Assembly: GCA_048940925.1 (NCBI GenBank) | Contig: JBHLOC010000001.1 | Coordinates: 64,001 to 128,000 of the forward strand | Length of the DNA: 64,000 nucleotides | Direction of reading: 5' to 3' | Origin: Promethearchaeota archaeon | Lineage (GTDB): Archaea > Asgardarchaeota > Lokiarchaeia > Sigyniarchaeales > SOKP01 | In this document: positions 10,882 to 14,609 of the stretch, in pieces | How positions within the stretch are numbered: position 1 is the stretch's first letter | Layout of the letters: each line of letters starts with the position of its first letter | Notes under the pieces: model-generated | Databases searched by the model: none | What the model saw: the letters and a program-made list of their open reading frames with translations, nothing else | Told to the model about the DNA's origin: nothing | Made by a program: the position numbers and the translations under genes

Positions 10882-11187
10882 ATGATATTTATAGTTACCC
10901 AATGGACCCCATATAATAAAACAAATGAATGGTTCGACGTATTTAAAGAGGTTCAAGGCAAACTGCCATCCTTCATAAAGAAATGGCAAACCTTTGCGGT
11001 TCCTGACGAAGATCGAGGCATTAAAGGATACAATGTTATTATGGTCGAAAAAGGTAACGCTGACGAGGCTATGATTGAGATTTCTAAATTAATTGCTCCA
11101 TTTTGGAAAATCGAAGGTTTTGCCATGAAAACCGAGACAGCTTTCGCAATGAGAGACGCACTAAAAGTAATCGGGAAAAGTCTTTAA
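10882..11187 (+). CDS. Small hypothetical protein
   Basis: 101-aa ORF, GAGGG SD upstream, T-tract downstream. Confidence 0.7.
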   Translation: MIFIVTQWTPYNKTNEWFDVFKEVQGKLPSFIKKWQTFAVPDEDRGIKGYNVIMVEKGNADEAMIEISKLIAPFWKIEGFAMKTETAFAMRDALKVIGKSL

Positions 11188-11201
11188 GTTTAATTTTTAA
11201 A

Positions 11202-11212
11202 TTTTTTTTTTT
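11202..11212 (+). terminator. Oligo-T archaeal terminator candidate
   Basis: 11 consecutive T starting 15 nt after the 11187 stop. Confidence 0.45.
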
Positions 11213-11562
11213 AGATTTCTCTATTTTTCCTTCAACAATCTACTTTTAAATTATTTTTTATTATAATATATGAATAAAAACTTGAGAAGAGAGATCCTAC
11301 TCTTCTTTCATGACATTTCCTTTTCTTGAAAATTAATCTAAAATTTGAATCAGTATTGATCGAAACTCTAGTTAAATGATCAATTTTCGCGAATAATGGC
11401 GAAATCCGTTATCATAATTATTGTATTTTAATATATATCCTATGTGTTTTTCATCTGATGACTATTTCAGTAAATAACAAATAAGTGAAATGGCAGTATG
11501 GCGACTGATCCCATTATATGGTTGTCCATTATGCATAGTAATAATTATTGAGATTGATCAAG

Positions 11563-11602
11563 TTTATATACGAAAATTCATATATAGTACTTGAGGTGAG
11601 TA
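11563..11602 (+). promoter_or_regulatory. TATA box (TTTATATA) and strong SD (TGAGGTGA) of the 11609 gene
   Basis: tttatata at 11563-11570; tgaggtgagta at 11592-11602, just before ATG 11609. Confidence 0.6.
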
Positions 11603-11608
11603 AGAAAA

Positions 11609-11887
11609 ATGACTAACTCAAATTATGTAAACAGATCAACCGAAAAGGCAGTGAGCAATTTTGAGAACATAAAGACTGCCTTAAAGGGATTGTATGAGAT
11701 TATGGATTTAGGCATGAACGAGGATGAATTTTATCGTGAGGCGGGGAAGGAGAATATCGAAGCGTTGTATAAGAATCTCATCGAGTTATTATTGAATGAA
11801 TATGGGTTAAGGCAGTTGGTCAAGAAGATCAACAGTTCCGAAGTGGATTTAAACATCGTGCTGAATGAGTATTTAGCGAATGCATAA
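11609..11887 (+). CDS. Small acidic helical hypothetical protein
   Basis: 92-aa ORF with a clear TATA and SD. Confidence 0.75.
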   Translation: MTNSNYVNRSTEKAVSNFENIKTALKGLYEIMDLGMNEDEFYREAGKENIEALYKNLIELLLNEYGLRQLVKKINSSEVDLNIVLNEYLANA

Positions 11888-11932
11888 ATAAATTTTTCTT
11901 TATTGATTAGTTTTTCTTAATAATTCTTTCAA

Positions 11933-12057
11933 ATCAGTCAATTTGTCATCTCGTTTATTTTGATAACGGTTCCCTGATGTTATCCGTTGAATACTCACCT
12001 CACACATTGGTTTTCCTTATTTTCAAGGATATTTCAGGGGGCTGACCTTTATATAGT
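11933..12057. repeat. Copy 1 of a duplicated ~125-nt non-coding element (candidate sRNA or regulatory module)
   Basis: Aligns with 13625-13752: atcag.caatt / tttg.taac.gt.ccctgat....tccgt.g...actcacctcacaca / ttcaagga.at.tca / tttatatagt. Confidence 0.75.
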
Positions 12058-12071
12058 TCTGAACAACAATA

Positions 12072-13352
12072 TTAGTTTGAAAAATTCTCTTTAAAAGATT
12101 CTTTCTTATTTTTTTTCTGAGATTGGTCAGAGGGTGAAATTTCTTCAATTTCTTCTTCCTGTTTCAATGATCGGACTGGTTTGGACTCATCGAACGGATG
12201 ATTACACACCCAACAGATATTTTCTAAATTTGATAATGTGTCAGCGCATTTATTACAATAAAAAGTATCACACTCAGGGCAAATATATATCTTTCGTTCT
12301 AATTTTCCTTTGCATACTAGGCAAATTTTCTTTTCCTTGGAAACAGTAACCTCCTCTTCAGTGATTTTTTGACGTCTGGTAAATATCCCTAAAACGTCAG
12401 TATCTACTTTTTTTTCTTTTTCTTCTTTCTTTGAGGCTAATTCTGACCGTGTATTTCGTATTATAAGATAAAATAGAGTATAAACATATATGACTAAAAC
12501 CAAAATTTCTATGATATAAAGGAAACTAAAAGCTTCAGGGCGCCTTTCAATAAAAATAGTTATGTCAACAATTAATATAAATACAATTAAAGGAATAGCT
12601 AAAAATGCAAAAAATACCCAGTAAAATAAGGCTCGTGTAATCAATTCGGGTTTAATAATCATTGGTATAACAATGATGATACAACCTAGTATTAATAGAA
12701 TTGGACTCAAAAAGAGAGAATACCAATTCAGTGATTTATGAGCTCTTAGTGCTAGGATTAATGAAAAAATGAAAGATAAAAAACCGAATAAAAAGAATGA
12801 AGAAACTGCTTTAAACTCAGGGCGAGACCATTTTGTATAAAGATATAACACGTATGGGACTATAATTACTAATCCGGGTATTATAAGAAAATTAAAGATG
12901 CTTCTCGCTGTCGACAGGGGTTCCATAGTAATTAAGGGTAAAAAAAATAACAGTGCTATAAAAATAGAAAACATAATTGTCAGAATATATTTCGTACGTC
13001 TTACAATCAACTCAAAAGATAAAACAAAAAACAAACCCCCTATTCCTAATATGGCATTACGTATTATCTCAAGAACAACATAGACTGATGAATAATTGTT
13101 ATAATCGCCGTAAAATGTAAAGTTAGCATAGTTAAAGATTCCTCGAACTTGAATAACTTGAATGCTGGTAATAATCAAACTAGAAGCGAAACCAAGAGGT
13201 AAACTAGCTAATCCAAACATTATCATCTTTTCATTGAAAACTTCTTTCTTTCTTCCCTTAAGTATAAAGTAGATCCCGCACATTAGGGTTAATGTTATCC
13301 CAATTCCCCATATAAACCTTTCATAAGGATCCCAGATCATCACATCTGCCAT
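12072..13352 (-). CDS. Multi-pass membrane protein with a C-terminal C4C4 zinc finger
   Basis: About 9 hydrophobic segments, then CLVC-x9-CPEC-x4-CNKC-x10-CWVC. Confidence 0.85.
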   Translation of the reverse strand: MADVMIWDPYERFIWGIGITLTLMCGIYFILKGRKKEVFNEKMIMFGLASLPLGFASSLIITSIQVIQVRGIFNYANFTFYGDYNNYSSVYVVLEIIRNAILGIGGLFFVLSFELIVRRTKYILTIMFSIFIALLFFLPLITMEPLSTARSIFNFLIIPGLVIIVPYVLYLYTKWSRPEFKAVSSFFLFGFLSFIFSLILALRAHKSLNWYSLFLSPILLILGCIIIVIPMIIKPELITRALFYWVFFAFLAIPLIVFILIVDITIFIERRPEAFSFLYIIEILVLVIYVYTLFYLIIRNTRSELASKKEEKEKKVDTDVLGIFTRRQKITEEEVTVSKEKKICLVCKGKLERKIYICPECDTFYCNKCADTLSNLENICWVCNHPFDESKPVRSLKQEEEIEEISPSDQSQKKNKKESFKENFSN

Positions 13353-13624
13353 AATAGACTCCTTTAGCTTAAAGTTTTTTAAAGAAATATTGAATTTACT
13401 TCAGTTTGATCAAATCTAGATAATCTTAGTTTTAACTCATATTTATATATTAACCTAAAAGATTTAGAGCGTCAATTAAAGGAATTAGTTTGATTCAACT
13501 TCCATAAGCTACTCATCCAGCCATTTTCAAACTTTTTTTCATCCAAAATTTATTACATATTACTATAATTTAGCGAATGTATAAATGTTAGGATTTGCTT
13601 AAGTAACTTTTTTATATTAAGATT

Positions 13625-13752
13625 ATCAGCAATTGATATTAAGTTGACATTTGTAACAGTGCCCTGATCAATTCCGTAGGGCACTCACCTCACACACTTA
13701 CTCAACTTTTATTCAAGGAAATATCAAGAATCTGTAACATTTTTTATATAGT
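13625..13752. repeat. Copy 2 of the duplicated non-coding element, with an 8-bp hairpin
   Basis: Direct-repeat similarity to 11933-12057; perfect stem agtgccct/agggcact at 13658-13685. Confidence 0.75.
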
Positions 13753-13781
13753 AATTTTGAAAAATGATTAAAAGACAAATT

Positions 13782-14039
13782 TTATTCAGAGCTAAATTGC
13801 CTATCAAGGTCAATAACTAGAGGAATCTCCTTGTTATCTTTCTTCACAACTACTTTTAAAACCCCATCCTCAATTTTAGTACTGATAGGTTCTATTTTAG
13901 AGACTTTTCCTTTCAAAGATGCATGTAAACATGTTTGTTCCTCATCATAAAGAACACATTTGGTGCAACAGAATCCTACAGGCATAAATCCTACTATTGA
14001 ACATCGATCATATGCTTCACAATTACAATTATTACACAT
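13782..14039 (-). CDS. Small Cys-rich hypothetical protein
   Basis: 8 Cys in the first 37 aa of an 85-aa ORF. Confidence 0.7.
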   Translation of the reverse strand: MCNNCNCEAYDRCSIVGFMPVGFCCTKCVLYDEEQTCLHASLKGKVSKIEPISTKIEDGVLKVVVKKDNKEIPLVIDLDRQFSSE

Positions 14040-14147
14040 TTTTCTATCACTTATCTTATTTTTTATGTATTTTTTTGTAATTTTTTTTTTTTTTAATAAG
14101 TATTTATTTCCACAATATTATAATATAACGCATTCATATTTAAATTT

Positions 14148-14384
14148 GATCATTCTCAGACATTTATTGTTTTGAAAAGATAAATTTAGCAAAAATTAGA
14201 TCATGTGATTTAATTTTTGGCATGATCATTACGATTTTGATCATATCGATCCGAGATCTATTGATATTTTTGGAAAATGTAAATTGATTTTAAGAATAAC
14301 GATCAAATATCTTATTCTTATTGATCATCAAAATCGCGACGTAAAGGAACAAACATTTTTAACATATTTTGATCGCTTTTGATC
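14148..14384. promoter_or_regulatory. GATC/TGATCA cluster in the divergent intergenic region upstream of hdrC
   Basis: GATC at 14148, 14199, 14224, 14239, 14248, 14255, 14301, 14323, 14371, 14381. Confidence 0.55.
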
Positions 14385-14609
14385 ATGAAATCTAATAAAT
14401 TTGTCATATTCTAAAAAGTAAGAGAGAAGATTTATCAACATTAAAAGAAATATCCGAGAAGATAAGTTTTATTGTTCTAATTGAACTTATCTAGTGTGAT
14501 TTTGATAACATAAAACACATTTAAACAATTTAGTTATGGAAATTTTCTAAAAAATTTATAATATTTATATTATTATCCCAATCAACAGAAAATAAAAAAG
14601 CATGATGAC

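Follow-up and report, generated by a model that had tools for sequence, protein, structure and literature searches.

In type I toxin-antitoxin pairs such as hok/sok and tisB/istR-1, an RNA encoded beside a small gene pairs with the translation initiation region of that gene. Some mRNAs of such systems occlude their own Shine-Dalgarno (SD) sequence by folding the 3′ end back onto the 5′ end. In the archaeon Methanosarcina mazei, a single-stranded region of the small RNA (sRNA) sRNA162 pairs with the ribosome-binding site (RBS) of its target and is thought to repress translation (PMC3510493). For the Asgard archaea, no paper on regulatory RNAs was found in the searchable literature. The locus described here lies in a window of 64,000 nucleotides (nt) from a Promethearchaeota archaeon of the Lokiarchaeia (assembly GCA_048940925.1, contig JBHLOC010000001.1, positions 64,001 to 128,000). 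It consists of a gene for a 92-amino-acid (aa) protein, p92, followed on the same strand by a hairpin element whose loop carries an anti-SD sequence. Comparison with relatives suggests that this element probably specifies a ~90-nt plus-strand hairpin RNA which masks the RBS of p92, and that a second copy of the element further along the window is a degenerating duplicate.

The first-pass annotation of the window described two colinear direct-repeat copies around a gene for a 426-aa membrane/Zn-finger protein and proposed either a family of anti-SD RNAs or a fold-back cis element pairing with the neighbouring RBS. Both copies are present at the positions it gave, the shared 14-mer ACTCACCTCACACA is exact (11993–12006 and 13684–13697), and the comparative data support the proposal. 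It had also suggested a search for homologues by BLAST and covariance model. Within the organism's own 4.8-Mb genome both methods return only the two copies, which BLAST aligns with 72% identity over 78 nt (E of about 1e-3), and further copies occur in relatives. The covariance model (CM R1), built from 19 copies, finds 55 copies in 28 of the 135 genomes surveyed from the same archaeal family. Among the 28 are 23 of the 53 surveyed in the organism's own genus and three of 42 in a second genus, with one weak match in a third. The core of the element (11969–12054) has clear homologues in same-genus relatives, often several per contig. A cmscan of positions 11000–14500 against Rfam 15, with E up to 10, gave two chance matches (SNORD107 and tsr25) far below their gathering scores, and no tRNA or tmRNA was found in the window. 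By these comparisons the hairpin family of Lokiarchaeia is real, conserved and previously undescribed.

On the plus strand the family, ~90 nt in size, folds into an 11-bp closing stem, CAGUUCCCUGA ... UCAGGGAACUG, followed by a small internal loop and an 8-bp upper stem, UCC(n)UUGAA ... UUCAAGGA, below a loop of ~30 nt. The loop opens with UACUCACCUCA, which hardly varies, and continues with variable sequence, so that the anti-SD seed occupies a single-stranded position in a predicted and conserved hairpin. The plus strand of copy 1 has a minimum free energy (MFE) of −26.1 kcal/mol (z = −2.55 against shuffles) and its minus strand, with a z of −0.5, folds no better than shuffles. Across relatives 93–97% of stem cells are paired. 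Internal positions of stem 1 vary from U-A to U-G, and 34 distinct intact copies contain 31 G-U cells versus 12 A-C cells, the latter mostly at helix ends. At the three internal variable stem positions there are 22 U-G cells and zero A-C. Variation of this kind suits an RNA read from the plus strand rather than the minus strand. Stem 2 additionally displays one G-C to A-U compensation, seen in two public assemblies.

The complementarity between loop and RBS carries the argument for a regulatory role. The first-pass annotation identified TACTCACCTCA in copy 1 as the exact reverse complement of the p92 RBS, TGAGGTGAGTA, which is correct for all 11 nt, and loop and RBS pair throughout the close relatives. 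Pairing was examined across 29 loci, aligned from the RBS through to the end of the RNA. These loci comprise 24 genomes with a p92 orthologue of at least 69% identity and five loci from public assemblies and a metagenome; a metagenome scan with the p92 protein gave a single locus. The RBS UGAGGUGAGUA and the loop UACUCACCUCA pair over 11–13 nt in 29/29 loci, with a duplex energy of −19.6 kcal/mol for the window core and about −20 kcal/mol in relatives, and 315 of the 319 cells for the 11 core positions are paired. The motif TTGAGGTGAGTAAG is unchanged at 26 of the 29 loci; each of the three variants, which represent two lineages, has a compensating change in its loop. The RBS core shows just two substitutions, both matched by a loop change: UUAAGG with CCUUA in G127 and G140 (G-C to A-U) and GAGCA with CGCUC in G092 (U-A to C-G). 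Two further loop changes produce G-U pairs. Six cells have changed on both sides, against a shuffled mean of 2.1, and 2 of 500 shuffles reach this number. The statistics for compensated pairing are modest, their power being limited by the high conservation.

The 16S rRNA helps to separate pairing with the mRNA from simple resemblance to the ribosome. In a relative, the 16S rRNA has the 3′ end GGAUCACCUCCA, which limits ribosomal pairing to GAGGUGA (7 bp). The U-A to C-G change in G092, at compensated position 10, lies outside this 16S-pairable part and therefore indicates RNA-to-mRNA pairing and not mere SD likeness. As far as the aligned loci can tell, the loop is selected to match the p92 mRNA rather than just to resemble an anti-SD. 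The 11-mer TGAGGTGAGTA occurs four times in the whole genome, counting both strands. Other potential targets in the genome are a few 9–12-nt matches before short open reading frames (ORFs), none of them as good as p92 or next to the RNA. The hdrA RBS, put forward earlier as a second match, does contain AGGTGAG but is merely an ordinary 7-nt SD, and it was rejected as a target.

The target site also resembles the eukaryotic 5′ splice-site consensus (GAGGUGAGUA / UGAGGUGAGUA, 11592–11602), and the loop sequence AAUACUCACCU (11990–12002) resembles the 5′ end of U1 snRNA. The splice-site interpretation was set aside as there is no evidence of introns, and the likeness is probably a by-product of SD similarity.

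The position of the RNA is as constant as its loop. An intact copy lies 45–75 nt past the p92 stop codon, on the same strand, in all 29 close orthologue loci. At eight loci where the p92 homologue is more distant (52–69% identity), no RNA is found even with search filters off, and the RBS differs, e.g. GGTGATG, GAGGTTTG or the canonical AGAGGTGAT. Three genomes with an RNA match and no p92 orthologue have a decayed copy (31–46 bits), and a fourth genome without the orthologue has only a marginal 26-bit match. Members of the p92 protein family occur in 118 of the 135 genomes, often as 2–6 paralogues. The RNA partner is restricted to one orthologue group of this family, and most family members are without it. 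The 86 homologues of p92 are all hypothetical proteins of Promethearchaeota/Lokiarchaeota, and p92 matches no Pfam family above threshold. Its AlphaFold2 model is helical (pLDDT 74) and a Foldseek search of this model against the PDB gives no fold match. The sequence has no hydrophobic stretch and is predicted to form soluble helices.

Upstream of p92, orthologous regions consist of TTTATATA, 21–22 nt, TTGAGGTGAGTAAG, 4–6 nt and the ATG. Given the usual archaeal distance from TATA box to start site, p92 transcription probably begins at or 1–3 nt before the UGAGGUGAGUA motif, which would place the 5′ end of the mRNA at or just before the target site. In most relatives the promoter (window 11548–11580) has TGATCA palindromes on both sides, in the arrangement ATGATCA-n3-TTTATATA-TGATCA, and the window retains the upstream palindrome only. 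These palindromes could form an operator or a methylation-sensitive promoter.

Table 1. Features of the p92–hairpin locus, in window coordinates.
Feature	Position	Strand	Basis or remark
TATA box TTTATATA of the 92-aa gene	11563–11570	+	Box and RBS spacing kept in 12/12 orthologous upstream regions inspected
Target site, extended SD TGAGGTGAGTA of the 92-aa gene	11592–11602	+	7 nt before the ATG at 11609
92-aa gene (p92), presumed regulated gene	11609–11887	+	ORF; small acidic helical protein
Two T5 runs directly past the p92 stop, possible archaeal terminator of the p92 mRNA	11893–11915	+	Sequence
Copy 1, intact hairpin RNA (putative)	11961–12055	+	Covariance model, 90.4 bits
Copy 1 stem 1	11967–11977 with 12034–12044	+	Predicted and conserved fold
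Copy 1 stem 2	11983–11991 with 12022–12029, G11986 bulged	+	Predicted and conserved fold
Copy 1 loop	11992–12021	+	Predicted and conserved fold
Anti-SD core UACUCACCUCA, 5′ side of the copy 1 loop	11992–12002	+	Exact 11-nt complement of 11592–11602
Inserted segment between the copies: membrane/Zn-finger gene and its upstream region	12058–13567		Comparison of relatives' loci
426-aa membrane/Zn-finger gene	12072–13352	−	ORF
p92 3′-end remnant, 19-mer	13568–13586	+	Repeat search; 95% identical to 11871–11889
Copy 2, decayed duplicate	13651–13745	+	Covariance model, 49.9 bits
Copy 2 loop core (kept); 14-mer; lineage-specific hairpin	13683–13692; 13684–13697; 13658–13685	+	Fold and alignment
85-aa Cys-rich gene (MCNNCNC...), conserved right-hand border, convergent with the RNA	13782–14039	−	ORF; tblastn in relatives

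It is proposed that the hairpin loop occludes the SD and the 5′ end of the p92 mRNA, leading to translational repression. Because the loop duplex of 11–13 bp exceeds the 7 bp available to the 16S rRNA, binding of the 30S subunit should be blocked and p92 translation repressed. In a cis version, the RNA would be the 3′ tail of the p92 transcript and would reach the RBS through a long-range kissing pseudoknot. In a trans version, it would act as a separate or processed sRNA. That the element is transcribed, that its effect is negative and that it works in one or other of these ways is what we infer from the sequences. Of the 24 genome loci, the majority have a T-rich run such as ATTTTTCTTTT past the p92 stop, with G018 and G099 as exceptions, and many transcripts would stop there without reaching the hairpin. 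A TATA-like box lies 27–37 nt ahead of stem 1 in some clades; others have no convincing box. Together, the T-runs and the TATA-like boxes of some clades favour a separate sRNA.

Several observations weigh against repression of p92 by this RNA. Both the cis and the trans version have difficulties: the T-runs past the stop oppose simple co-transcription of p92 and the RNA, and the sRNA promoter, plausible in some clades, is inconsistent across clades. The MFE fold of the whole transcript shows no 5′–3′ pairing, although the program cannot represent such a pseudoknot. There are only two independent compensated events, and most paired positions are invariant and hence uninformative. Decayed copies, too, retain the loop core (12–15 of 15 positions), which could reflect a recombination core and not selection for pairing. 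Finally, the 4.8-Mb genome contains GAGGTGA at only 300 places, of which 83 are within 16 nt of an ATG, and this scarcity indicates that strong SD sites are uncommon in this organism. As SD-led initiation is rare here, the motif might have another role at the mRNA 5′ end. The support for regulation of p92 by the RNA is comparative in kind, and is graded as good.

The two copies in the window are duplicates, as first described, but they are not equals. Copy 1 has both stems, whereas the 11-bp closing stem of copy 2 is broken and absent from its fold (z = −0.9). The separate hairpin reported for copy 2 does exist, with 8–9 bp (GUGCCCU/AGGGCAC). Aligned with copy 1, copy 2 agrees at 20/31 positions of the 5′ part, at 14/15 of the loop core and at 23/38 of the 3′ part, and decayed orthologues of copy 2 are found in G018 and G099, the two closest genomes. 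From this pattern, copy 2 is most readily understood as an old duplicate in decay, which would have arisen when the membrane/Zn-finger gene inserted beside the RNA gene. The duplicated unit had been given as ~125 nt; the duplication is real but the unit is larger, at ~190 nt from 11871/13568 to about 12057/13752, because a 19-mer from the last codons of p92 (11871–11889) recurs at 13568–13586. Such a p92 3′-end remnant also precedes secondary copies in G008 and G073. The motif tttatatagt is indeed shared by the two copies but is not conserved in relatives. A coding interpretation was rejected as the copies differ by indels and have no common ORF on either strand.

Comparison of relatives shows that the duplication belongs to a wider pattern at this locus. 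The order in all genomes is p92, intact RNA, 0–17 kb of variable DNA, the Cys-rich gene and hdrCB. In four genomes a single RNA separates p92 from the Cys-rich gene and there is no insert; the others carry 0.3–17 kb of differing cargo. An RNA copy lies 30–60 nt from the stop of the Cys-rich gene in all but one (G076) of the 23 loci in which tblastn detects this gene. The Cys-rich protein has the motif MCNNCNCEAYD.CS..G..P.GFCC..C, is 66–88% identical among relatives and is encoded next to hdrCB in every genome examined; the 85-aa protein of the window matches no Pfam family above threshold. Cargo in relatives (L101, L105, L106, L147, L148 and L154) encodes TIR, SIR2-TPR, Piwi-like, LRR, GNAT and DUF401 proteins and lies on both strands. 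Second copies of the RNA are intact in G073, G076, G003, G008 and others. At one locus of G003 (L101, G003:C7, 16752–17178), an intact copy on the other strand neighbours a 76-aa dihydrolipoyl dehydrogenase gene fragment, which adjoins the full-length gene. Such an arrangement points to an inversion or a duplication there.

The bracketing of variable cargo by RNA copies, always between p92 and the Cys-rich gene, raises the question of whether the element serves first of all as an attachment site in the DNA. Insertion of mobile DNA by site-specific recombination would then have its crossover in the loop core, as it does in tRNA genes, the repeats and the 14-mer would be att remnants, and the RBS match would be non-regulatory. 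The loop core is retained in every copy, and the TIR, SIR2-TPR, Piwi-like and LRR genes give the cargo an island-like character. In seven genomes the far copy is partial, matching the near copy at ~90–100% in the 3′ part and 30–55% in the 5′ part with the junction at the loop core, much as in integration into tRNA genes; in the window both halves of copy 2 have diverged. However, no integrase or transposase is found among 20 cargo proteins, and in five genomes the locus contigs carry no tyrosine recombinase, PF00589 matches being located on other contigs. An attachment site also leaves unexplained the invariant extended RBS 400 nt away with its compensated changes, the G-U pattern of the stems, and the conservation of the full hairpin in the four single-copy, insert-free genomes. 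It is improbable as an account of the element, and attachment is more likely an added property of an RNA gene than its function. An RNA gene with two uses, in which the loop core serves both as anti-SD seed and as crossover core of an insertion system that would treat it as integrases treat tRNA genes and would stack defence-type and other cargo in Lokiarchaeia, is likewise unlikely. If this were true, each insertion would add an anti-SD copy and island growth would alter the dose of the p92 repressor. An integron attC or cassette array was rejected, as the ends read CAGTTCCC...GGGAACTG and not R''/R' boxes (GTTRRRY), cargo lies on both strands and no integrase is nearby.

Two further explanations were weighed. 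The hairpin sits between two convergent genes, its stem is stable and a T-run follows it in most relatives (CCCTTTTACTTTTT), so it might be a mere 3′-end terminator or stabiliser for p92 and the Cys-rich gene, with the loop–RBS complementarity a by-product. However, archaeal termination requires U-tracts and not hairpins (PMC8716108), a terminator has no need for an invariant 11-nt loop or for changes matched to the RBS, and other p92 homologues do without a hairpin, which makes this explanation very doubtful. The alternative raised in the first-pass annotation, that the element is read from the minus strand as a TATA promoter and leader with a GAGGTGA SD, as an antisense RNA or as a K-turn (C/D-like) RNA, is scarcely credible. 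Copy 1 does read CTATATAAA ... GAGGTGAGTA on the minus strand and contains CUGA and UGAUGU motifs. Yet in both copies the minus-strand SD lacks a start codon or conserved ORF after it, and neither the TATA box nor the C-box-like UGAUGU is conserved in relatives. The U-G wobbles of the stems would become A-C mismatches on this strand, on which copy 1 folds like shuffled sequence, and there is no C/D or other match in Rfam. A C/D-box sRNA, for which a conserved C box RUGAUGA close to the 5′ end and a D box CUGA close to the 3′ end would be expected, was rejected specifically: UGAUGU is present in copy 1 only, relatives read CCCUGAC/UUU..., and the CUGA sequences are part of a perfect helix.

Masking of the p92 RBS by a plus-strand hairpin RNA would be of interest beyond this locus. 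The RNA is a compact candidate, with a defined RNA, a defined target 400 nt off and natural compensatory mutants. It may provide a handle on the control of translation initiation in the closest prokaryotic relatives of eukaryotes, where SD use is sparse. If it acts in cis, it would represent an mRNA whose two ends pair. Separately, the locus marks a recurrent insertion hotspot with TIR, SIR2 and Piwi-like genes and is useful for finding defence islands.

No described family resembles the hairpin family in sequence or fold, and the type of mechanism proposed for the hairpin RNA is already known. Like sRNA162, it would mask an RBS, although the two are unrelated in sequence and structure and the seed of the hairpin RNA lies in a hairpin loop. 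Its target is directly upstream on the same strand, unlike that of sRNA162, meaning that the RNA could be a 3′ untranslated region. The pairing is that of an extended mimic of the 16S anti-SD, and its support in this RNA comes from sequence comparison. The locus resembles type I toxin-antitoxin pairs in having an RNA beside a small gene and complementary to its translation initiation region. It differs in that p92 is a hydrophilic, helical 92-aa protein, not known to be toxic, and not a short hydrophobic peptide, and in that most members of the p92 family have no RNA partner. A type I toxin-antitoxin assignment was rejected as p92 is not a small hydrophobic membrane toxin.

As an insertion locus, it is closest to tRNA and tmRNA genes and to the ryeA/ryeB sRNA locus of Salmonella, reported as an integration target by Balbontin et al. 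(2008, J Bacteriol 190:4075; cited in PMC3333887). These sites share with the present locus the placement of foreign DNA beside a small RNA gene, bracketed by full or partial copies of which the far ones lack the 5′ part. They differ from it in several respects. No integrase was found at the hairpin RNA locus among the 20 cargo proteins and the five genomes' locus contigs. The target here is a lineage-specific putative regulatory hairpin in an Asgard archaeon, and some of the duplications extend into the 3′ end of the protein gene that precedes the RNA.

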